Positions 16,308 to 64,000 of a stretch of 64,000 nt of DNA are shown here, in pieces; the first letter of the stretch is position 1, and every line of letters begins with the position of its first letter. The DNA lies in the IMG/VR virus record IMGVR_UViG_3300029928_000003; one strand, 5' to 3'. Below the pieces are notes generated by a model. That model was not told where the DNA came from. It did no database searches and saw only the letters and a list, made by a program, of their open reading frames with translations. The position numbers and the translations under genes were made by a program. Origin of the DNA: a virus (taxonomy: Duplodnaviria; Caudoviricetes).

Positions 16308-17309
16308 TTATTCGCCATCTTCATGAGTATCCTTTTGATCTGAATTTGCTTTCTTTTCCGCAGGAACTTTTACAATTCCGGCATCAGGAGCAATTACAGT
16401 CAACCCATTTTCAAAATCTGATGCAACTGCTTGATTTACAAAGAATACATGAGTAGTAAGAGATTTAGTAACTTCACCAACTGCATCACCACCCATAATA
16501 CCACGATTAACGCAATAACGAACTACATATTCATTATATTTTGCCCCAAGAACAGGAGCTTCATCTGCGTTAACTGCACCATAAGAAAGACGAGCGGCGG
16601 TAGGAAGACGAAGATTCTTCAAAATATATTGATAAGTACCGAAGCCTTCAACACCTTGTTCAATCTTGAATTGTTCGTCATAATCAGGATTCTTAGTTTT
16701 ACCGTCTTCAAGATATTGCATAGTAGTAGGAAGTGCCGATTTAACAACTTCAAAACCGCCAAAAATAGGACAAGTATCTTTCTTAACAAATTCTTCAATA
16801 TCCATACGAGTAAAACGTTGATATTCATCAGCACCCTTAATAGTTACAACTGCACCAGAAACACTTACTTTTACAAACTCTTTCTCATAAACAGTAAGCA
16901 TAAACTTCTTAGTCATTTTCTTGATACGTTCTGCAACTTTGTCGGCGGTTTCGCCTTTTTTCCAAATAAACTCAATATAGAAAGGACGGCCTTTAAATAC
17001 TAAGTCATTTGCATAGTAAGAATTAGCTGAATCCGAAAGACGAATGTACATTGCGATACGGAAAAGCTTATCTTCATCAATAGGGGCGGTTAATGCACCA
17101 AGATTAAGAGTTGCTTCAGGAACTTTAGGTTCAGTATATTCAGCTTTAGTAATTGAAACCACATTGGGCTTTAAGAACTTAAGATGACGTTTAATATTAA
17201 AGCTGGCGACATTTCCGTCTTTAGCTTCCTGTGAACTCCACAGGGGAGTTTCACCAGTTGAGTAATCTTGATTTGCGTTGATTACTGTAGTTGTTGTAAA
17301 TTGAAACAT
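16308..17309 (-). CDS. Conserved structural protein (probable auxiliary capsid protein)
   Basis: 333-aa TAG-free ORF with high-expression codon usage, in the capsid operon. Confidence 0.7.
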   Translation of the reverse strand: MFQFTTTTVINANQDYSTGETPLWSSQEAKDGNVASFNIKRHLKFLKPNVVSITKAEYTEPKVPEATLNLGALTAPIDEDKLFRIAMYIRLSDSANSYYANDLVFKGRPFYIEFIWKKGETADKVAERIKKMTKKFMLTVYEKEFVKVSVSGAVVTIKGADEYQRFTRMDIEEFVKKDTCPIFGGFEVVKSALPTTMQYLEDGKTKNPDYDEQFKIEQGVEGFGTYQYILKNLRLPTAARLSYGAVNADEAPVLGAKYNEYVVRYCVNRGIMGGDAVGEVTKSLTTHVFFVNQAVASDFENGLTVIAPDAGIVKVPAEKKANSDQKDTHEDGE

Positions 17310-17317
17310 AATTAAAA

Positions 17318-18265
17318 TTATTTAGTTGTACTCTATTGCTGAACTGGATTTGCAATAGTTTGTGTTACTGCACTGTGTGTTTGTAATCTAGGATCTGCGG
17401 TATTTTCCATTACCAATGTTACCAGTTCATTTATTATCTCTTGACATACATAGTCTGGAAATTCCATAATCTATGAAGTGTCTTCTGTAAGATCTACCTA
17501 TTGCTAGGTAAGTCTAATTGTTTGTGGAGCTTTTATATAATCAATAAGTACGTGTTTTAATGCAAAAATACTATCATCTTTGCCGTACCGAATTTCACAT
17601 CTAACTTTCGATGTATTACCATATCTTACTGCAGCTTCTTTTTCTACTAAACTACTTTTATGACCATTATTACCAATAATTACTCGGTCTAAGTTTGTAT
17701 TATTACCTTCAGTCTTTTGTACCGTATCAGGCACCTAACCTACTTCTACATTATAAACTCCATTCATATCCGTATCAGGATTTGTAGGAATTTTAGTATT
17801 AGTATTTACATTATGTAAATAGTAGTAAGGTCTTTCTGGAAGCGGCCTATTATAAAAATCATTTACTATAACTGACCAAGCGTCGGCTGTTAATCGTTTA
17901 GCAGCAAATTCAACTATGTCTCCTTTATTATAGCATTTATAATTTTGATTTAATTCATAGACACATATACAATTAAGCATGTGTAAATAATCAGTGGGTA
18001 AATCAAATTCATAAGTTGCTTTAAATAAGGGTTGAATAGTAGTGCCGTATTTAGTTGTATGAGTAGGATCAATTACTGCAGTAGCTTTTAATACACGAAG
18101 ATCATCAGTTGTTTGCTAATTGACATCGTAGATGTTATAGCGTTTATTTATATATTGATTAATCGCTTTATTAATAAAATAATTAAAGTCTTGTAAGAGC
18201 ATACTTGGGGCATGAACCTTACTAAGCTCCGTTAGCAATCCTTCAAATACCTATCTAGATGTCAT
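17318..18265 (-). CDS. Neck/ring protein
   Basis: MTSRQVFEGLLTELSK..FNYFINKAINQY..DDLRVL..LPTDYLHML..YIKAP..EFPDYVCQEII; TAG=Gln. Confidence 0.7.
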
Positions 18266-22200: not shown

Positions 22201-24779
22201 TCAGGATCTTCTGTTTTGTGCACTCCAATATAAATTTTATTATTAATTTTATTAATTGTTTGATATACTATATATTTCATAATATTGTTAAGTTAGTTCC
22301 CATTTCCACTAAAAAGTGTACGATTAAATAATCTAGTCGTTAAACCTCTATCTCAACTACCTATTGGCCTGTTATATGAGATATTTGGCTGCTGATTGCC
22401 ATATCCGTAGATTTAGGTTTCCAGCAATTAAAGAACTTTATTTGTATAAGCCTCTCGACTTACCGACCCGTTTATTAAGCGGCGAAACTTAGTAAAAATT
22501 CAGGTCTACCAGTATCTGGATCACAGATTGTGGCCTTACCATTAGCGTCAATATTAGTTTTATTGAATAACAAACCCTGGTTACGCGAAACAAGGAAGTT
22601 ATCAAGGAGTTCTTTCTCCTTCTTATTCATTTTATAGATTGTTTCACTAAGACAACCTTGATTCTTGCCTTCTGCAATGCTTACAAATACATCTTCATGA
22701 GCAGCATAAAGCGAAGACCACGAGATATCATTACGGAATGTAGTAATATAATTGCGATGCTTCTCAATATTGCTTTGGCTCTTAACGTACCCTTCTTCAG
22801 AAAGTTCGGGCATTGCATTAGACTAGAATCTTGTAGTCATACCGACCTAACATCCTGATAAATCAAGTTCAGATGAATAATCATTATCAATTAAGCGAAC
22901 AACTACCTCCCAGTAATCCATTTTATAGACTATATCATTTATTAATTTTAATTATATTGTCTTTAAAGTATTTATTACCTTGTAATAAATCTTTAATATT
23001 CTTTTTAGATAAATCATAATCTTTTTGTAAATCTTCAAGATTACTATATTTTTTTATAAAGTTACCATATTTATCATATACACTTATACCCTTATTAGTA
23101 CATTGTGGCTCTAAATAAATATAGAAATCTTGATACTTATTATGATATTCTTCAAATATCTTACTTATTTTGTTCCAAGAATGTAATTTAATTATCTTCA
23201 TTAATTCTTTTCCTTTGCACTTTGTAATAAAATTCATATCAGAATCATATACATAAAATTCTGCACTTTTATACCTAGTCCTAGGTTTAGAATAGAATAG
23301 ATCACACATTTTGGTAGAAACAAAATATTCATTATCTATAAGATTTTGAGATACTATATATTTCATTAATTCTTTAATATCTAATTTAAGATATTTAGCG
23401 CAACTAAGTTTGGAATTAAATTCTCTTAATAGTTTACCATTCTTACTATATACATAATAATAATTAGAATAAGTTTTATTTATAAATTCATTCAGTTTTA
23501 TTTTATTATTAGTACTCCAATACGAATCTAGAAATAACACTTTACTATTAACCGCTGATTGAAATTTAAATGCAGAATAACCATAAAAAGATTCTGCTTC
23601 TCTGTAATTAGTCCATTTTTTAACTAATAGTCCTTCTTTATTGAATTGATAAATAGGAATATTTACGTGATCAATAAAAGTATTAAAAGTTCTAGCAGAT
23701 TTAATAAAGTCTTTATTTAATAATTGATCTAATTTATTATATGCTTCTTGTTCATTATCATAAACATATAGTACAACTCTTTTAAATTCTTTTGAACCGT
23801 ATTTCTTAACTGCACATTGTAAAGGCGTTTTCGGGTATTTAAAACTAGAATTGGAATTAATCCAACACCCTGCACCTATATAACCATCAAACTTATCTGG
23901 GTTTTCTGTTTTATGCACTCCTAAATAAATACGATTATCTCTTAAAGAGATAGTTAAAAAGACAATATATTTCATTTAATAATTCAGTTTTTTAATTTAT
24001 TAATTTATAGGTTTCCCTTAGTCGTTGAACATTTCTATATAATATAGATATGCTGCTGATTATCAATTTGACTTTCCAGCAATTTAAAGAATTTATTTTA
24101 AAGCGAGACAATTAACTGGGTTGTTTATCACGCTTTCTGGTAGGCCTACTAACTACTATGCACTGTTGCATTGTTGCATCAATTTTAAAGATATCATACT
24201 TCTCATAGTAGCGTTCCTTAAATGCCATTACAATTTCGCCGCCATTCTCACCAGTTTCCTGGGGAACATCTGCGAATTCAATACGTTTAATAAAGTTAGT
24301 TTCTACTTCCCATTCAAACATCATTGAATCTACTGATTGGAACTTATTTGCTCCCTTTACATCATTATAGAAGATATTCTTTAATGATTCAGTAAGATAT
24401 GTAGCGGTGTTTTCAGGATAAAGGCGTGATACTACGCCAAGCTTATGAGGGCGTGCGCCCAAGAACTTATAGAAATCTTCATAAGTTCTAGTTTCTGACA
24501 TCGTAGGTCTATTCAATATTGTTATCCTGTATCTTTTTAATTATACAGTTCTATTAGTTTACCATCCTAATAGTTCAGACTATATCTTCTATCTTCCGCG
24601 CTCGTGTCAATATTATTGATTGAGCTATCTCAATTGTTAGTCGTTGAACCTATTTCTTACTTCTATGCTCTTCAGAAAGTTGGCTGCTGATTACCCAAGA
24701 AATTATGAGGGAGGGTTTCCAGCAGTTCACGGAATTTAACGTCACCAAATAGCTCAGTGACAAAATTTGCAACTATCAT
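19214..24779 (-). CDS. Major capsid protein, 5 exons (24756-24779, 24127-24513, 22502-22918, 20614-21151, 19214-19269; 473 aa spliced)
   Basis: Exons join in frame: MIVANFVT|NRPTMSETRTYEDF..RKRD|DYWEVVVRL..DPDTGRP|IYIGDGLIPQ..LIMMG-Y|AGIGVFAPYRSFILRQA*; 1422 nt; each junction is U|...G| with P1/P10 pairing. Confidence 0.9.
19270..20613 (-). mobile_element. Group I intron 4 of major capsid gene
   Basis: P1 GATGGGTT/GATCCATC; P10 TGCCG/CGGCA; core TTGCTGGAAA, AATCAGCAGC, GTTCAACGACTA, AAGATATAGTCT; splits a Tyr codon T|AT. Confidence 0.88.
19304..20401 (-). CDS. Intron-encoded GIY-YIG homing endonuclease with NUMOD1 repeats (TAG-recoded)
   Basis: WIVYCTTNTINKKIYIGVH..YLGCG..YNMALGG; several VYQYD-type repeats with Q encoded by TAG; 365 aa. 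Confidence 0.85.
21152..22501 (-). mobile_element. Group I intron 3 of major capsid gene
   Basis: P1 GACCU/GGGTC; conserved core motifs; terminal G at 21152. Confidence 0.88.
21202..22280 (-). CDS. Intron-encoded GIY-YIG/NUMOD1 homing endonuclease, frameshifted near 21486
   Basis: MKYIVYQTINKINNKIYIGVHKT..; the 276-aa frame stops at 21450, while a shifted frame continues AARQNNTS..IAQYDKDGNLIKIWD..GYIFKYID* to 21202. Confidence 0.8.
22919..24126 (-). mobile_element. Group I intron 2 of major capsid gene
   Basis: P1 AAAGCGTGAU/GTCTCGCTTT; P10 GATTACTGGG/CCCAGTTAATT; core motifs; very short 3' end (GATATAGTCTATAAAATG). Confidence 0.85.
22935..23975 (-). CDS. Intron-encoded GIY-YIG/NUMOD1 homing endonuclease
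   Basis: MKYIVFLTISLRDNRIYLGVHKT..FDGYIGAG; IYQFNKEG and VYDKYG repeats; 346 aa, no TAG. Confidence 0.85.
   Translation of the reverse strand: MKYIVFLTISLRDNRIYLGVHKTENPDKFDGYIGAGCWINSNSSFKYPKTPLQCAVKKYGSKEFKRVVLYVYDNEQEAYNKLDQLLNKDFIKSARTFNTFIDHVNIPIYQFNKEGLLVKKWTNYREAESFYGYSAFKFQSAVNSKVLFLDSYWSTNNKIKLNEFINKTYSNYYYVYSKNGKLLREFNSKLSCAKYLKLDIKELMKYIVSQNLIDNEYFVSTKMCDLFYSKPRTRYKSAEFYVYDSDMNFITKCKGKELMKIIKLHSWNKISKIFEEYHNKYQDFYIYLEPQCTNKGISVYDKYGNFIKKYSNLEDLQKDYDLSKKNIKDLLQGNKYFKDNIIKINK
24514..24755 (-). mobile_element. Group I intron 1 of major capsid gene (ORF-less, 242 nt)
   Basis: P1 GTCACU/GGTGAC; P10 AATAG/CTATT; core CTGCTGGAAA, AATCAGCAGC, GTTCAACGACTA, AAGATATAGTCT. Confidence 0.9.
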
Positions 24780-24800
24780 AATTTCTTATTTAAAATGTTC

Positions 24801-45152: not shown

Positions 45153-48100
45153 AAGCATTAAACTAATTATTATTTTGAATAGAATTTTTTATTTTGGGTA
45201 TTTTACCTTTTCTTTTATAACCAAATTCATCAATATAGTATCCAATATCATACCATTCTTCATTATTATTAGAAATTTTTCTAGGTATAGTTCCAGATAA
45301 TTCTTCATCTGCTAGCATTGCCATACCAAATGCGGCAATAATATCAAACTTACGTTTATTCTCGTCAGTATACCTGTTTAATTCGTCAAGTATTTCTTCA
45401 AACCAAATCTCATGACAGTAATCATTTACATAATCTGCAATAAGATCAGTTTGGTGTGAAATAATCGTAGATGTGGCTGGGGTACCATATTGACTTGTTT
45501 TTCCCTTAGTTATGTCTGTTAAAGTAGCCCTAGGTCTCTTCATAAAGTACTATAAATAATGCTAATTTCTAGCCCAACCTAAAAGACTTACACGCGTTGC
45601 TTCAAGATTAATTAAAGCATTATAATATTGAGCTAACTTAATAGCTATTTTGTGAGCATCTCTTAAGTCATTTGGCCTGTCTTTATAAAGAGCTACTATC
45701 TATGGATTCTATAAGCCATAGACTCTTTTATATACAACTATACAAAAATCTGAAGGATCTCTTGTAAATTCTGAGGTTTGACTTGCTCCAATATCTATAC
45801 CGTCAATACCTATTACATATAATCCCTCCATTTCTTCTACTTTAGGTCTTATAATGTTTCCAGATTCCTCATCTCTTATTGGTTCTAATGTCCATAAAGG
45901 ATGTTCTAATATTTTTAATTTACTAGTAGGATCTGGTTTCCATTGAATTCCAGTAACATTTTGTTGAGTATGTATATTATTTTTAAAAATATATTCTAAT
46001 CGCCCAGCTTCTATCTTTGGGCATTTCTTTAAAACTCTTATCTAAGCTAATTGCTCAGCTATATTTACTTTATTAAATTTATTATCACCTTCAAGATTAA
46101 ATGCTTCTTCTGGATTGTAACAATACTCGGCAGCAAAAGTTATTAATTCTTTAGGACTATCAATAAATCTAGCACGTTGTTTATCGTAGTATTCTTTTCC
46201 TTTTTCTGGGGAGGTATATCCACGATTATCCATATACTCTCCTTTTACAATAGAAAAAGCTGGAAGGAAAAAACCAGTTAAAACTTCTTCTCCTGTTTGT
46301 GAATAGTGGTGTTTATAAGGTAAGACATTAAAAGCGTTTGGGTCATAGAAAATTGTTCGTAAACCTTCTAATTTGGCTCCTGAATCGCCTCCAGTCAATG
46401 TGTTATCGTTAAGTTTTTTATCTTAACTTCTTATAATTTGATTTTTATAAGTTCAGCGTACATTTTCATTTAATTAAATGTCGGGCACTCTTGCTAGTAT
46501 TATATTCTTAATAAGTTTCAACTAGTACGCGTTACGGTGACTAATATTATTACATATTAGTTTACCTCGGTATTCCCATCGCAGGGTTCACCGATTTTGC
46601 CCAATTTTAATGCGGCAAATTTATTAATATATATATTATATTTACGATCCAAATATATTGTAGCATTTTTATAAAGTAGATCTGCGGCTCTATGTGCTTT
46701 ACTAGTACTATAACTTAATCTGTAAGTATTTTTATTACAGTTTGTTTTCTACATTAGAAATCCTTTTCCTAAGTATTTCTATACACCCTCTAAAAAATTT
46801 TTAGTACCGACTATTAATAAGGATTCTTCTAATTTTGGGTTCTTTTTACTATGAGGATATACACCTAAAGAACCGTTCCCATCTACATATCCACGTATAA
46901 AATCATATATTAACTATCTATTTTTAAAAATATTGTCCGGCGGAAATGTTAAAATTAAAGATTTGTTTGGAACACATCCTTTAGATATTAGACTATTCCA
47001 TAACTATTCATTTGTTATCTATGTACTTACCATATACATAGTATCTCCATTTTTGTCAGTATGTTCTTTACTTCCAAATTGATAGGTTTCAGTTATATTT
47101 AAACCTTTTTTGTAATTTAAAGCCTTATTATATTTTTTAAGATGTTCAATGTCTTTTAACGATATATTTAAACTTACTGTAAATTTTTTTGCACAAACAC
47201 AGCCATTAGCATACATAAATCCTAACCAATATGCCTTTTCTTCCGTATCAATAACATCAAAAAAATCTTTATTAAATTCGGATTTATTTCTATTAGCAAC
47301 AATTTCAATATTATTAATTTTTAAATATTTAGTAAGAGTTTTTCTATTAATACCATATTTGGCAGCTATAGATACAATACTTCTATCATATATTGCAGTA
47401 TTCAAGTATTCCTAAATTGCTAAAGCTATTACCTACTTTTTGTATTCTGTTTTAGAAACCTCTTCTATATTATTAATTTTTAATTCATCTACAGCTTTAT
47501 TTAAATTACTTTTATTGTTAATTCTTTTTATAGAAAGTCCTTTACTTTTTAAAAAATTACTTATAGTAGAAATACTTATTTTATATTGCTTACTTAAAGT
47601 AGTTAAACTAATTTTATTTTCTTTATATATTTCAAATATTTTATTTAATCGTATATTACGTTCTTCTTTTGTCATACCAGTTATTTTTAGTATTTAAAAT
47701 GTACTTGTTAATAATATATATATATAATAAACTATAAGGTTATCTACCGCCTATAACCTTATAACCGAACTATTCACCCTAAATATGTATTAAAGCATCT
47801 CCTTGAATAAAAGCTTTAGTAGAATTTAACCAGCTTCCCCCCTCTTCATATAAAAGTAAATCACAACGATCACCTCTAATTTTATTAGGGGTGTCTGCGA
47901 TAATTCCTTTAATTACGGACTTACTACCAGATTCAATGTCAATACCATTACGAGATTCTTTATAAGAAGCTTTTCTTTTCATAGCAGTATTAACTACTTG
48001 GGCTAACTGAGAAAAACCATTACCAGTACTATCATTCAAAAATGATAAAGCATTCCATACTTTAGATAGAGTATCTTCTACATATTTAGCTAAATTTGCA

Positions 48101-57963: not shown

Positions 57964-60900
57964 ATGACTAAATTAGTAAATAAATCTGGACCGATATAGT
58001 TTAATCTGCCAAACGGTGGTAAATCACCTGTATTTCAAAATGGTAACGAGGCTTCTGAATGGTATGTATAGCATTATCCGATACATGGATATAGAATTAC
58101 AACCAATTCTCCAAATTAGTAGCTTGTTACTAATACTTCTGGTAATATCACCCAACTTCCATAGGTAACAGTAACTGCAGTTGCTCCTAAAATAGAAGAT
58201 TAGTAGATAAGAGCCTAGATAATGTCTGGTAATTATAAAGGAACTAAATTTATTCCTACAGAAGCTAATATTAAACATTATCTAGATTTATATGAAAAAG
58301 ATAAACAAGTAAATAAAGCATCAGATTCTAGTGAATGGGCTAAATTTGTAGGAGAAAATGCAGCAGCCGCTGCTAGTGTAGTAGGCGCACCATTAGTAAC
58401 AGTAGGTGGTTTGATTGGTGGTATTGCTGGAGGTGAATTAGCTAATGCTGCCCACCGTGCATTAGTAGATAAAAATACTAGTATTGGTGAATATGTATCT
58501 AATGCATGGAATAATAATTTAACTAACACTAGATTGCCAGGAGGACATTATTTGCCTTAGATAAGTCCTGAAATTGGAGAATTTGCAAATGCAGGTAGTT
58601 TAATAGGAGGGGCAGTAGGAGGTGCAGTAGGTGCTCTAACTGACTATGGGGCAAAACAAGTATTTACTCCTTATGTACGAAATCATTTTTCTTGGGATAA
58701 TGTTAAAAACTAGGTATTAAAGCTAACTCCTTAGAATATAAAAGAAAGATATTAGAAAAATATTGATTTTGCTTATAATACAAATTAGAAATTTGGAGTA
58801 ACTGCATATAATCAAAATCGTTTAGCATAGGAATTATACAGTATTCCTGACGAACCTTATAATTAGTTTTTTAGAAGAATTCCAGGAGCTATGTATACGG
58901 ATTCAATAGGACGCCGTCCACGCAGGGTTAGACATCGCAGAGCAGGCGCCCCTCCGTAGCGTGCTAAGATTGTATATTTGGAGCCTATAGCTCCAGAAAG
59001 AAAATCTCTTCCGATATTGCATGATACATCAGTTAAGTTTGACCCAATTACAGGAGAAATAGTTGAGCTAAGAAAGAATCCACTATGGGAAAAAGCTTGG
59101 GATTATGTAAGATTTGGTTTAGATCCTGAAGTACAAAAACAATATGAACAGCAATTAATAAAAGCAGGGTTTACACCAAAAGATAAAAGTTTATATTTAG
59201 AAAATAATGGGGAGATATATAGTCTACTTCCTTGGGCTTCAGGTATAGATGTACAAATTAAAAACGATCTTAGGGATTTTAAAATAGATCCAAAGATAGC
59301 TTCTGAATGGACGGCTAAATTATAGCAAGCAGCTAAAGATATTCCGGGATTTAAACCTTGGGGTTCTTCTGTTGGTGTTGCTGAGTAGGCTATGGCTGGA
59401 ATGCCGCACGATATAGATGGTGTTATTCCGTTTAGTATGTTGCCAAAAGGAGTAGTTCCTAAAATAAAAGGGGAAACTTATTTATATTAGCACCCTACAC
59501 TAGGTGATATAGATTTAAATGTTATTAAAATAAATCCTAAAACAGGAATTGGCAATGAAAGAGCTACTGAATTATATGTATAGTTATTTCCAGATGAATA
59601 TCATAAATAGGCTATGAATATGGTTACTAACCCAAATAGAGAAAATTATGCTTAGTACCCTGTTAAAATATTAGATATTAATGGTAATCCTATGACTGAA
59701 GAATAGTTAATGTCTAAGTATAACGCTTTAAAGAAAACTATACAGGATTCGTTTGAGATTTATTGGGATTCAAATGAGAGTAAAAACAAACATTAGTATA
59801 GACCATTACAATATTTATTAGGTAATTAGCCATAGACCGTTCATGAAGTATTACAAAACATAGCTCGTAAAGAACTAGGAAAGAATGGCAAATTATTACC
59901 TAAATTAAAATTTGGAACCCCAGAGGAAAATCAAGCATTATTAGAATCTATTGGGTATTCTGATATAATCGCTAAAGAATTAAGTACTTAGCCAGATAAA
60001 ATGTAGAATGCGTTAGATTATTGGTATCTGGCAGACAACACTTTATTTAGAGCAGTTAATGCTGGAGATTAGGGACAGCTTGGTGGAACACCTCAGTAGG
60101 TAATACGAAATTTAACACAATGGAATCCTGTTGCAGGTGGGGGTACATTATCAGGAGAAGGATTAAATACTACTGTATTTGGGTGGTCAGGCCACCCACG
60201 AGATGTTTCTGGACTACTTTAGCCTAGAATAAAAGGATTATATGAAAACATGCCTGCTTAGGACGCAGTTAATCTAGTTTCACGTAATATGTGGTCTTTT
60301 GGGGAAGTTACTAAAGCATAGGCAGATGCCATTAATAAAATAACTAATTTAGATATATAGGAGGGCACTCCCCTATATGATATGTTAGAAATAATTGGAA
60401 ACTACACTACACGACTTCCTAATAAAGAAAGAGCAGAAAAATATAATCAAATATTAGACATCTTAGGGGTACGTGGTTTAAAGGGGGAGTCTTATTCTTA
60501 TGATAGAACTAGCCCACAACGATTCTACGGTGCAGGAAACCTTAATCCTGAATCAGATGGTATTGGAGTAAATACTGGTGATATTGCTAATAATTTTAAG
60601 TTTAAATAGATTCCTACTACAGAAGGCCGTATAGAAGTACCCGTATGGTAGGATATTGGAGATTCAGATGCGTATAATCGTAATACATCTATTCCAGAAA
60701 ATGTAGAATAGATAATAAGTAGACTATTTCCATTTAGAAATACTTATCCTAGTAAATATACTCCAGCAATGTTTGCACGAGATAGAAAAAATCAACTTCA
60801 AGCTAAATCAAAGTAGAATGAAGATATGATGTGGCATTTCTATAATAAATGGCTAAATTTAAAAAGAGGGGAACAACAAGTATATTCAAATATGCTTGAG

Positions 60901-60990
60901 TAGCTCAGATAGAATTTAACTAATTAGGCTGCACAAGGTGCGTAGGCTGGAGCAATTAAAGGAGAAATTGCTAATAGCTAGAATAAATAA
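57964..60990 (+). CDS. Cargo/effector-like protein B (~1008 aa) with nucleotidyltransferase-like motif
   Basis: Three ORF-track fragments in frame; N-terminus paralogous to the 55460 gene; WGSS..PHDIDG motif. Confidence 0.65.
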
Positions 60991-61010
60991 TCGAGTAGGA
61001 GAAAAAACGA

Positions 61011-61047
61011 AAAAGGAGAACATCAATTAAGATGCTCTCCTTTTTTT
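61011..61047. terminator. Bidirectional intrinsic terminator
   Basis: AAAAGGAGA-ACATC..GATG-CTCTCC-TTTTTTT between convergent genes. Confidence 0.8.
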
Positions 61048-61050
61048 AAT

Positions 61051-61440
61051 TTAATTACGAACAGATATTTCATTTAGGTTATCTAACCAGTCTAAAACTT
61101 CTTGTGAGTTTTCTAACTTATAATCCTTAATCATATTCCATACTTCATTTAAATCTTTTAAAGATTTATTCATTCGATTAGTAACCCACTTTCTTTGTAA
61201 TTCATCTAATGTTATTGGCGTATAGCCTTCTGGAATCTTATTGTAAACAGAGGTAATAGATTCTCCTTTATTATTAATAAAGTAGAATAAATCATTACGA
61301 ATACTTATAGATTCTTTAATTTCTTTTTTAGTTTCGTCAATGATACGAACATCGTCCCAAGTAATACCTAATTGTTGTAATTTTTTATCTGGATTTTTGG
61401 GATAATATTCTATACCATTATATTCAAATTTAAGTCTCAT
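61051..61440 (-). CDS. Hypothetical protein
   Basis: 129-aa TAG-free ORF starting 2 nt after the tRNA discriminator base. Confidence 0.7.
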   Translation of the reverse strand: MRLKFEYNGIEYYPKNPDKKLQQLGITWDDVRIIDETKKEIKESISIRNDLFYFINNKGESITSVYNKIPEGYTPITLDELQRKWVTNRMNKSLKDLNEVWNMIKDYKLENSQEVLDWLDNLNEISVRN

Positions 61441-61442
61441 AG

Positions 61443-61763
61443 TCGGGGTAGAGAGACTTGAACTCTCACTTATGGTTTTAGAGCTAATTGTTCTGTAAAG
61501 ATTTTTTATTCTTTACTTCTACAACTTCTTATTAATTGTAGTTCAGCATACGTTTTAATCCAAAATATTGGATTGGGAACACTCGTGGTAATATTATATT
61601 TATTCAATTACTATGCGTTACATTACTTTTTGACCTTTCGCAATTCAAAAAGTTAACTCGGCATTGGCATCACAGCTTTTACCGATTTTGCTCCCTACAG
61701 CTATTATATTACTATAATAGTGGGCCTCTTGACCACCTTGCTAACCATTACAAACATACCCCA
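61443..61763 (-). tRNA. Amber-suppressor tRNA (anticodon CUA, Gln-like), exons 61732-61763 and 61443-61483
   Basis: Spliced 73 nt: acceptor TGGGGTA/TACCCCG, D-loop AATGGTTA, anticodon stem GTGGT/ACCAT with loop CT-CTA-AA, T-arm GAGAG-TTCAAGT-CTCTC. Confidence 0.88.
61484..61731 (-). mobile_element. ORF-less group I intron (248 nt) in the suppressor tRNA
   Basis: U|C...G| boundaries; P1 GTGGU/GCC(C)AC; P10 CTCT/AGAG; core collinear with the terL intron. Confidence 0.85.
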
Positions 61764-61774
61764 ATTTAATATAA

Positions 61775-62128
61775 TTAGAATTGATCTTTCAAATAAATCA
61801 AATCTTTAATCTTATCCGTAATATGTTTTTTAATTATATTCTTAGTAAAATTAATAAGATTAAGAACTCTATCAGTTTCTTCATCAGTAAGCTCTTTCTT
61901 ATTAAGAAGATCATCAAATTCTTTCAAGTCAACTTGATAAGTAGATTCTAAATCTTCTGTAGCATCTAAGAATAAACAATCATCTAATAGTTCTAAACTC
62001 TTTTTAAAATCTTTAATTTTATTCTTTACTGAATTATATTCAGCTTGGATTGAATTACCATCAGATGTAATCTATACATCAAATCCATAATCTTTAAATA
62101 GTTGTTTTAATTCTTCTAAGTTTTCCAT
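61775..62128 (-). CDS. Acidic hypothetical protein (one TAG at codon 19)
   Basis: MENLEELKQLFKDYGFDVQITSDG...KDQF*. Confidence 0.7.
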
Positions 62129-62150
62129 ATATTTTTAATTTTTGATGTTG

Positions 62151-62181
62151 TAAATATAACACATCAAATCTATTTATCAAA
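62151..62181 (-). promoter_or_regulatory. Bacteroidota sigma70-like promoter for the tRNA operon
   Basis: TTTG-N19-TATATTTA; identical architecture recurs at 63077-63107 before the rep gene. Confidence 0.45.
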
Positions 62182-62293
62182 TATATAAAATGTTAAAATA
62201 TTTTAAATTTTAAATTCTGCCTTTTTCTAACTTCTATAAAGTTAGCATCTTCTAATCTCTTTATAATAGAGTTAATTGTAGGAATACTGATTG

Positions 62294-62340
62294 CAACTAA
62301 CTATACTTAAATACTATACTTGTAACTGTACTTAAATACT
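62294..62340. repeat. ACTATACTT iteron-like repeats (downstream of rep)
   Basis: Three copies (one ACTGTACTT); CAACTAACTATACTTA shared with 63206-63221. Confidence 0.6.
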
Positions 62341-62371
62341 TCACGAACTCAGAAATTTTTAAAATTGATAA

Positions 62372-63052
62372 TTATACCATATACTGATTATTGATTTTAC
62401 GATTTCTTAGAGCTTGATTTTCTAACTTTAACTGAGCTATCTCTTTCTTAAGTAATTCAATGTCATCTGTATTTTGTTTTATTTTTTCATCTTGTTCTTT
62501 GAACTTCCACACAAATAATTGATCTAATTCTCTTAATTGAAATTTCTTAGTAAATTCTGAAGCTCCTTCTAAATATCCTTTCTTTTCTAAAGCTCTATTA
62601 CACTTACTTATTGTTGCTTCCGGCATTCTAATTAAAGAAGATAATTCTTTATTCGTGTACTCTATTTTTCCTTCATTATTGTCTTTAAACATATATTGTT
62701 GAGTAGCTATTATATAAGATTTCTCGGTAAATGTTAATTCTGGTTTATCTAAGAAGTCATAACTATAAGGTTCAAATTGTTTCTTATTATTAAACTTATA
62801 TATTAACTTACGACCCTCTCGTCTAGTTTGTAAATAATCTTCTTTTACTAAATTATCTACGCACTTCTTAATAGTCTTAGCGGCTGCCCCCGTGTCTTTA
62901 GTAATAGTTGCATAACTTGGATATGCTTCCATTGTTTGCTTATTCATATATCTTCTAATAGCAACATATATTAATTTATCTTTTGGGTCTAAGTCTGGTT
63001 GAATTTCATCGTTTGATGGATGAGGATAAATTACAAATTGATTATTTTCCAT
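62372..63052 (-). CDS. HTH replication-initiator-like (RepL-type) protein
   Basis: DKLIYVAI..AYPSYATITKDTG..TIKKCVDNL wHTH plus second HTH and coiled coil; TAG-free. Confidence 0.7.
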   Translation of the reverse strand: MENNQFVIYPHPSNDEIQPDLDPKDKLIYVAIRRYMNKQTMEAYPSYATITKDTGAAAKTIKKCVDNLVKEDYLQTRREGRKLIYKFNNKKQFEPYSYDFLDKPELTFTEKSYIIATQQYMFKDNNEGKIEYTNKELSSLIRMPEATISKCNRALEKKGYLEGASEFTKKFQLRELDQLFVWKFKEQDEKIKQNTDDIELLKKEIAQLKLENQALRNRKINNQYMV

Positions 63053-63130
63053 TTTTATTAAATTTTAATTATGGTATAAATATATAATTTTTATAGTAAA
63101 TACCAAAGTAAATTATATATTTTTAACAAG

Positions 63131-63360
63131 GACTACCTGCTACCAAGATTAACTACCTAGGTTAATATAGAGACTACCTGCTACCAAGATTAAACTACCA
63201 GTTACCAACTAACTATACTTACTATACTTATATAACTATACTTAATTAGAAAAACTCTCTTCAGTAAAAATCAACTAGAACTGATTTTAAAATAAAATTT
63301 TTATATATGGGTTCCGAATTTAGTATCCCCCTACCCTAATATAAATACCCCCTACCCTAA
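63131..63360. repeat. Direct-repeat cluster, candidate origin/terminus region
   Basis: GACTACCTGCTACCAAGATTAA x2 (63131, 63172), ACTATACTT x3, CCCCTACCCTAA x2. Confidence 0.6.
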
Positions 63361-63495
63361 ATATTTAGAGGCTAATATATAGAAAATAAAATTTTTTATG
63401 TGAAAAATAAAAATTTTGTATATTATAGGGTAGTGGGTATACTACCCCTCCAGTCCCCCTACCATGGTAGGTATTAAATTCAAAATTATATTACA

Positions 63496-64000
63496 ATGAG
63501 TAGTACATTGAAGACAAAAAACGACCAGCGAGTAGCTGGTCGTAAACTCGCTGGTGCAAAATTAACCAGCGAGCAAAAAGACGCTCTTAAGGAGCGTCTG
63601 AAGAGGACTCGGACAGCTGAGTTAGATGTTACCGACACAATCACCCTTACGGGTGAATATGTGGAGGCCCTGTTCAACGATACCCCCTACGTGGCTCTAT
63701 GCTGCGTGGGGGGTCGTAGGCTGTCCCTAAACACCTTTCTTGGGGCCCCTGACCCTATGAAGGTGTTTCAGCCTGAAACCGTGGCAGAAGCCACGGAAAT
63801 GCCACATTCAGGGGCTGAACTGCTGGCCCTCTTAGGAGGGTTGGCAGGAGAAACTTTCGAGGTCATCGACAAAGCCGAAGACTTTGGAAGATTTTCTCAG
63901 ACTTTCTATCTGTGGAAACAGGTAGAGAAGACGGAGGGCGAGCCTGAGGGCGAATCTGAGGGCGAATCTGAGGGCGAATCTGAGGGCGAGAAGACGCCTG
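63496..64000 (+). CDS. High-GC hypothetical protein (runs off right edge)
   Basis: MSSTLKTKNDQRVAGRKLAG... open to the window end with no TAG; ends in an EGES repeat. Confidence 0.7.
   Translation, partial: MSSTLKTKNDQRVAGRKLAGAKLTSEQKDALKERLKRTRTAELDVTDTITLTGEYVEALFNDTPYVALCCVGGRRLSLNTFLGAPDPMKVFQPETVAEATEMPHSGAELLALLGGLAGETFEVIDKAEDFGRFSQTFYLWKQVEKTEGEPEGESEGESEGESEGEKTP
63934..63990 (+). repeat. 12-bp coding tandem repeat (GAGGGCGAATCT)
   Basis: About 4.75 copies encoding EGEP-EGES-EGES-EGES-EGE. Confidence 0.85.

Follow-up and report, generated by a model that had tools for sequence, protein, structure and literature searches.

A putative group I intron between the anticodon stem and loop of the amber-suppressor tRNA(CUA) gene in a TAG-recoded phage

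How does a phage decode amber codons when ordinary tRNA finders detect no tRNA in the DNA analysed? This question is raised by the window examined here, the whole 64-kb stretch of DNA from a gut phage, in which ARAGORN, run with and without its intron option, returned zero tRNAs and the Rfam tRNA model had zero tRNA matches. When TAG was treated as a sense codon, the cover by open reading frames (ORFs) of at least 150 codons rose from about 0.25 to about 0.9, and it did so along the whole window. About 320 in-frame TAGs lie in ORFs of at least 120 aa, and nearly every gene of the window contains TAG. The codons found opposite TAG were compared in two orthologous genes among four lineages, and CAA was the commonest, with 29 of about 120 positions in total and, for the two most similar lineages, 10 of 15. 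Since CAA is the most frequent codon opposite TAG, TAG is most likely read as Gln. An earlier annotation of the sequence (the first-pass annotation) had implied a TAG-recoded genome and noted TAG->Gln recoding in Crassvirales; the ORF cover and the codon comparison support recoding, most likely to Gln. A 1541-aa protein of the window matches the Crassvirus muzzle protein, and contigs of 147-153 kb from the same species were found in many samples. With a genome of about 152-153 kb, TAG recoding and its intron load, the phage would match the 'Zeta' group among the crAss-like phages, described by Yutin et al. (PMC7886860), whose genomes are very dense in group I introns. One plus-strand ORF at 57964-60990 (1008 aa, no family match) carries 43 in-frame TAGs, more than 4% of its codons, a density far above that of any other gene in the window.

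A tRNA(CUA) gene is present on the minus strand in two halves, 61763-61732 and 61483-61443, separated by an insert of 248 nt at 61731-61484. ARAGORN called the tRNA only once these 248 nt were removed in silico, as a 74-nt cloverleaf with the anticodon CUA. The coordinates, the strand and the cloverleaf proposed in the first-pass annotation were thus recovered, as was its expectation that standard tRNA finders miss the gene. In this cloverleaf the acceptor stem measures 7 bp and the anticodon stem 5 bp (G.U/U-A/G-C/G-C/U-A); the anticodon loop reads CUCUAAA and the T loop UUCAAGU. Exon 1 (61732-61763, 32 nt, minus strand) holds the 5' acceptor strand, the D arm and the anticodon stem's 5' strand, and ends in GGUGGU with U31 as its last nucleotide. 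Exon 2 (61443-61483, 41 nt, minus strand) starts with CUCUAAAACC and provides the loop CUCUAAA, the 3' strand of the anticodon stem, the variable loop, the T arm, the 3' acceptor strand and the discriminator A. CCA is not encoded. Both exons were defined by ARAGORN on the spliced sequence and by alignment to intact orthologues.

The intact orthologues were found in related phages; a neighbouring 129-aa ORF (61051-61440, minus strand, no TAG) served as the synteny anchor. A lineage with an anchor protein 72% identical (loci L006 and L007) carries an uninterrupted tRNA(CUA) in the same place, and the L006 copy scored 52.8 bits on the Rfam tRNA model. In a distant IMG/VR relative (L001), an intact tRNA(CUA) lies at the syntenic place, downstream of a homologue of the replication initiator. 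Alignment to these intact copies put the break exactly between U31, the last nucleotide of the anticodon stem, and C32, the first of the loop, which is the 31/32 position claimed earlier. A junction shifted by one base (C/C) is formally allowed, and the insert would then have C as its last nucleotide. Together, the cloverleaf with CUA, the orthology to intact phage tRNA(CUA) genes and the use of TAG as a sense codon in this genome identify the gene as an amber-suppressor tRNA. The tRNA-Gln(UUG) that the phage also encodes is no close paralogue of this gene. The match of the acceptor stem to E. coli tRNA-Gln given in the first-pass annotation was not confirmed, since blastn of an intact tRNA(CUA) orthologue against E. 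coli genomes gave zero matches. Only 2 nt separate the 3' end of the tRNA from the ATG of the 129-aa ORF, and the gene lacks CCA. Both must be part of one transcript, from which processing then separates them.

The split gene was found at 99.4-100% identity in 10 independent metagenome contigs of about 150 kb from the same species, and therefore it is not an assembly artefact. Exact exon patterns searched in IMG/VR gave zero matches, as did the 129-aa neighbour protein in the same database and a megablast of positions 58000-64000 against GenBank phages. JGI metagenomes gave no match to the junction pattern expected without the intron, so an intron-less form of precisely this anticodon arm was not seen in them.

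The insert itself has relatives in many phages. With the insert as query, blastn found homologues of intron nt ~35-244 with 69-79% identity in 22 phage records. Each of them separates the two parts of an interrupted gene. They lie in the terL genes of two Staphylococcus phages (F1 and SA2), directly 3' of the terL CDS as annotated and before the portal gene in cr7_1 and cr131_1, between the halves of an ATPase and beside an 'intron-encoded endonuclease' in cr6_1, in the helicase gene of cr118_1, within a Leptolyngbya phage's gene for DNA polymerase (with a LAGLIDADG ORF) and in the MCP gene of a bajarodcaudo virus; further homologues are present in C. difficile phages. Both ORF-less and endonuclease-bearing members occur in this family. 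In phiCD211 (L031), a family member adjoins a separately annotated Intron_gpI (1082-1352, 1360-1625) between the minor tail and tape-measure genes, and the pair may be two adjacent introns.

An alignment of 14 family members, including the window copy, fits the group I topology, with P3, J3/4 AAA, P4, P5, P6 (GAAA loop), J6/7, P7, P7.1, CACGAG, P3', P8, J8/7, P7', P9, P9.1 and a tail with the final G. In this alignment, 95.4% of the paired cells can pair, compared with 30-44% when the partners were slid, and this includes the P3/P7 pseudoknot. Changes on both sides were observed in 35 of 51 pairs, and the covariation score was 0.629, against at most 0.144 in the controls. Each helix is 76-100% paired across the alignment, and every helix is intact in the window copy.

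The 248-nt intron (61484-61731, minus strand) is ORF-less and appears IA-like with P7.1, an assignment based on family homology, covariation, a covariance-model match given below and an MFE z-score of -3.98. All of its elements lie on the minus strand. P2 (61701-61720) is a hairpin of 8 bp with a GUAA loop. The 5' strand of P3, GGGAGCA (61689-61695), pairs with UGUUCCC at 61581-61575; both-side changes were found in four of its seven pairs, and 99% of the cells are paired. The P4-P5-P6 domain (61625-61685) consists of P4 (UCGG/CCGA), a short P5 and a 9-bp P6 with a C-GAAA-G cap. The catalytic core (61544-61617) contains P7 (C-GCAUA/UAUGC-u-G), P7.1 with the family-invariant loop UGAAUAAAUAUAAU, the joining segment CACGAG, P3', P8 and J8/7, and it is followed by the hairpins P9 and P9.1 and the 3' tail AGAACAAUUAG (61495-61541). 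In P7, one G-C and one C-G pair are invariant in 14 of 14 members, and the third pair covaries between A-U and G-C. In the window copy, C115-G188 with the bulged U187 is the predicted guanosine-binding site. The P7 sequence is C-GCAUA/UAUGC-u-G and not the usual GACUA/UAGUC.

A P7.1 hairpin placed between P7 and P3' characterises subgroup IA, and the IC3 core has neither P7.1 nor P7.2. The architecture hence argues for a phage ribozyme of IA-like type and against a classical IC3 intron. The insert may also resemble the Twort intron, a likeness that was given no weight in this assignment.

The first-pass annotation had suggested a search of the insert with group I models, and the outcome depended on the model. 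Rfam RF00028 did not match the insert at the gathering threshold, nor at E<=10 in a search of 61300-61900, and Rfam gave no group I match in four homologues of the insert either. This failure is probably due to the non-canonical P7. A covariance model of the 3' domain only (R1, 147 positions) was built from the 13 family members other than the window copy. R1 matched the tRNA insert with 121.9 bits (E 2e-22) over model positions 1-147 of 147, and the insert outscored all other R1 matches outside the model's own 13 sequences. The window also contains a group I intron that is positive in Rfam (24514-24780, minus strand, RF00028 65.2 bits). R1 matched this intron over its full length (24514-24649, 64.7 bits), with P7 aligned on the canonical GACUA/UAGUC. 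Since R1 matches both the insert and the RF00028-positive intron, the insert is tied to bona fide group I introns, and for this reason the RF00028 miss was judged to be a sensitivity gap and not evidence against the assignment. Taken together, the fold and the model match strongly support the group I identity of the insert, and the earlier description of an amber-suppressor tRNA split by a group I intron agrees with the spliced cloverleaf, the family fold and the covariance model. A BHB/protein-spliced intron, a group II intron and a transposon were also considered and rejected, on the grounds of the boundaries (U before the 5' splice site, G before the 3' splice site), the length (248 nt), the group I core with its covariation, and the absence of both an ORF and terminal repeats.

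Several introns of this phage showed further features of their own. The Rfam-positive intron runs about 37 nt past its Rfam match, and this extension includes a P9.1 hairpin as well as a GAUAACAAUAUUG tail, both resembling their counterparts in the tRNA-intron family; an ORF with a NUMOD1 domain (22935-23975, minus strand) adjoins this intron. On a separate locus of the same species (L039), R1 matched 16445-16611 (37.5 bits) and 17752-17934 (57.1 bits), in the DnaB/primase region next to a LAGLIDADG_2 ORF.

R1 also detected the 3' domain of a sister ribozyme at 46395-46537 (minus strand, 110 bits, E 6e-20), just downstream of an endonuclease ORF (46557-47675, minus strand, 372 aa, phrog_4645 E 2e-52) with seven TAG codons. 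By R1, the sister ribozyme and the tRNA intron are close relatives and share the same non-canonical P7. The tRNA intron might need the endonuclease- or maturase-like protein of its sister for splicing, and as this protein contains TAG codons the tRNA and the protein would reinforce each other. The kinship of the two ribozymes, with their shared P7, and the intact state of the endonuclease-family protein with its TAG codons speak for such assistance. However, ORF-less family members exist in genomes that have no evident partner (cr118_1, Staphylococcus phage F1), and we consider protein-assisted splicing with feedback quite improbable.

The splice sites of the tRNA intron were defined from its boundaries and from pairing with the exons. 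The last nucleotide of exon 1 is U, and the insert ends in UUAG, its last nucleotide being G at 61484 (omega-G). The putative internal guide (61719-61729, minus strand) comprises the P10 strand AGAG (61729-61726), G7 (61725), which is the partner of U31, and the 3' strand of P1, CCCACU (61724-61719); it was assigned by duplex folding and shuffles, and its layout is that of the terL intron of Staphylococcus phage F1. P1 would form between GGUGGU of the exon and intron nt 7-13 (GCCCACU), with six pairs including U31.G7 and one bulged C, and it would engage the anticodon stem's entire 5' strand. This pairing depends on the bulged C, which sits beside or close to the U.G wobble and counts against our best explanation. 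P10 would form between intron nt 3-6 (AGAG), directly 5' of the guide G7, and CUCU of exon 2. Only 61 of 200,000 shuffles contained P10, the G and 2 bp at the fixed place, and the P1 energy was matched in nine of 2,000 shuffles. Hence, P1 and P10 match the intron's own tRNA exons better than chance. Among the other aligned family members, a G is found 7-10 nt past the GAUAAC motif in 12 of 13, with none there in Dulem virus 41. In the terL gene of Staphylococcus phage F1, the exons join in frame to a protein of 568 aa, again with U at the end of the exon and G at the end of the intron; P1 is clean (GAGGU/GCCUC) and P10 is AGGA/UCCU.

From these elements the following pathway is proposed. The 248-nt intron would fold into an IA-like core (P3 to P9.1, with P7.1 between P7 and P3'), and the 5' strand of the anticodon stem would pair with the internal guide to form P1 with the U31.G wobble. 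A free guanosine would cut after U31, which would then attack after the omega-G at 61484 with P10 (CUCU/AGAG) as the guide, and the loop CUCUAAA would be restored. Once its ends had been processed and CCA added, the tRNA would decode the ~320 in-frame TAGs of the window genes, most likely carrying Gln, as suggested by the codon comparison. What the sequences show is the structure of the gene, the fold, the membership of the family, the recoding and the occurrence of the intron among the relatives. We infer from this membership that the insert splices itself, and we also infer that the tRNA is aminoacylated and that splicing is not regulated.

The tRNA could instead have been killed by the insertion, with TAG being read by another suppressor. 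A scan for a second CUA tRNA found none in the window and in the 29 kb beyond its end, which were reached via contigs of the same species and hold a tRNA array (Leu-UAA, Arg-UCU, Glu-UUC, Gly-UCC, Gln-UUG). This amounts to 93 kb of the ~153-kb genome, the remaining ~60 kb being the replication and transcription block. Another suppressor could accordingly be sought in those 60 kb or in the host, and the extent of the scan is the point in favour of a dead gene. On the other hand, the core helices are all intact and the insert has the top R1 score outside the model's 13 sequences, the guide is still complementary to its own exons, both exons have kept a perfect cloverleaf, the arrangement is conserved in 10 genomes, and the orthologue of this gene is the sole CUA tRNA in the fetched loci of the relatives. 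A dead gene is hence highly improbable.

We consider it likely that the locus is an intron-split suppressor tRNA(CUA) gene, with an ORF-less group I intron at 31/32 as a selfish mobile passenger that is probably spliced constitutively. This reading draws on the relatives, which carry the tRNA either intact or with a different intron. In the lineages L002/L003/L005 and L008 and in GenBank MT835539, an insert of about 1 kb follows CUCU (35/36). Copies were delimited at L002:1958-2961, L008:61-1042 and L037 (MT835539):670-1672, and when the loci of L002, L008 and MT835539 were spliced in silico, a tRNA(cta) was called in all three. The ~1-kb insert encodes an HNH endonuclease (PF01844 25 bits, phrog_10822 E 9e-46). 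It is unrelated to the 248-nt intron and has canonical-looking R/S motifs (AACGACUA ... AUAGUC); Rfam gave no group I match on the L002 copy. By its placement between CUCU and AAA, the HNH intron lies inside the CUA anticodon. The HNH intron occurs on two different tRNA backbones, that of MT835539 being the different one, so that its homing site seems to be the loop of the CUA anticodon as such. From these comparisons, the suppressor tRNA of this clade has been invaded at least two times, by two unrelated introns at two sites.

The 248-nt intron was thus not retained across the recoding relatives: L006 and L007 are intact, and L002, L008 and MT835539 have a different intron elsewhere. Because TAG-recoded relatives have either no intron or a different one at another site, the intron is optional for the TAG-recoded lifestyle. 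Our preferred interpretation is a selfish mobile element, now ORF-less and fixed in this lineage, whose family mostly targets conserved protein genes of phages.

The first-pass annotation had gone further and proposed a splicing-gated switch of the genetic code, in which slow or conditional splicing (GTP, Mg2+, folding) of the sole suppressor tRNA times or licenses the translation of TAG genes. The tRNA would indeed be useless before splicing while nearly every window gene contains TAG, and no second CUA tRNA was found in the 93 kb scanned. The genes directly upstream and downstream of the tRNA, a replication-initiator-like gene (HTH_36, 62372-63052, upstream on the same minus strand) and the 129-aa ORF, are without TAG, which is what one would predict were the tRNA produced ahead of the translation of TAG genes. 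However, an intact gene suffices in the recoded relatives L006 and L007, the ribozyme comes from a generic family that resides in terL, helicase, polymerase and capsid genes, and zero sequence features point to regulation. Moreover, phage group I introns are established to splice constitutively in vivo. Since the sisters are intact, the ribozyme family is generic and no control feature was seen in the sequence, we regard the gate as unlikely, and this part of the earlier proposal was not sustained: the intron belongs to a mobile family of ordinary phage protein genes, and recoded relatives lack it or carry the HNH intron. A similarly low probability is given to the combined form, in which the ribozyme step on the sole suppressor is rate-limiting or conditional, possibly aided by the TAG-containing protein of the sister intron, so that a self-reinforcing loop arises and splicing sets the moment of the code switch. 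The preferred reading remains that of a passenger intron with constitutive splicing.

Group I introns in bacterial and plastid tRNA genes offer the closest comparison in position. The classical types are Leu.3Ug, fMet.2Ug, Arg.5Ug and Ile2.5Ug, all of them IC3. Williams 2020 (bioRxiv 10.1101/2020.01.27.920355) lists 21 settings in which bacterial tRNA genes carry such introns and examines loop positions 0-7. Like those introns, the insert is of a self-splicing type and lies in the anticodon arm, with U at -1, G at omega and P1 formed from anticodon-arm nucleotides, and it too hides its gene from ordinary tRNA finders. Unlike them, it resides in a phage and in a stop-codon suppressor tRNA, and by its architecture it appears IA-like with P7.1 and not IC3. 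It also differs in lying at loop position 0, a type (0Ug) absent from the seed alignment of Williams 2020. The earlier claim of an atypical site is weakened by the explicit test of position 0 (= 31/32) in that paper.

The phage introns in protein genes (terL of Staphylococcus and crAss-like phages, polymerase, MCP; td and nrdB of T4, orf142 of Twort) share the ribozyme family with the insert by sequence, fold and covariance model, whereas the target here is a tRNA gene. In the review by Hausner et al. 2014 (PMC3984707), all phage introns then known were in protein-coding genes, despite the many tRNA genes of phages. The present gene thus adds phage tRNA genes to the targets of group I introns. 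The tRNAs of Lak phages have been described as intron-containing (PMC8346664). The literature searched, whose coverage was incomplete, gave no account of a suppressor tRNA of a phage that carries a group I intron.

With the suppressor tRNAs described in recoded crAss-like and Lak phages (PMC7886860, bioRxiv 10.1101/2021.08.26.457843, PMC12386605), the gene shares the anticodon CUA in a TAG-recoded phage and a location near a tRNA array in a TAG-poor region, and it differs from them in being discontinuous. Yutin et al. 2021 (PMC7886860) and the 2025 Zeta paper (PMC12386605) described crAss-like recoded genomes without a detectable suppressor tRNA, for which host tRNAs, incomplete sequences and extreme divergence were proposed as explanations. 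Introns were considered in none of the three studies (PMC7886860, bioRxiv 10.1101/2021.08.26.457843, PMC12386605). A split gene offers an explanation, open to direct testing, for at least a part of the 'missing' suppressors of Zeta crAss-like phages, in which the tRNA would be present but discontinuous. It is also a reason to search recoded phages for tRNA genes interrupted at any of the loop positions 0-7.

Three minor observations were made in the loci of relatives. In a Bohxovirus (L040, PV686213), a homologue of the HNH ORF with 56% identity is flanked by tRNA-like halves at 840-875 and 1840-1900, exon 1 ending in GGUGGGCUCU; a brute-force splice search in this locus placed no junction with U before the 5' site and G before the 3' site that gave a clean anticodon loop. 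The minus strand of L006 has a RAGATH-1 hammerhead ribozyme (1404-1493, 60.3 bits, exceeding the gathering score), with the tRNA array on one side of it and the suppressor tRNA on the other. ARAGORN called an 85-nt tRNA with the anticodon UUA, of the ochre-suppressor type, in the array of MT835539 (L038:6356-6440, minus strand), a phage that also has the intron-split CUA tRNA.
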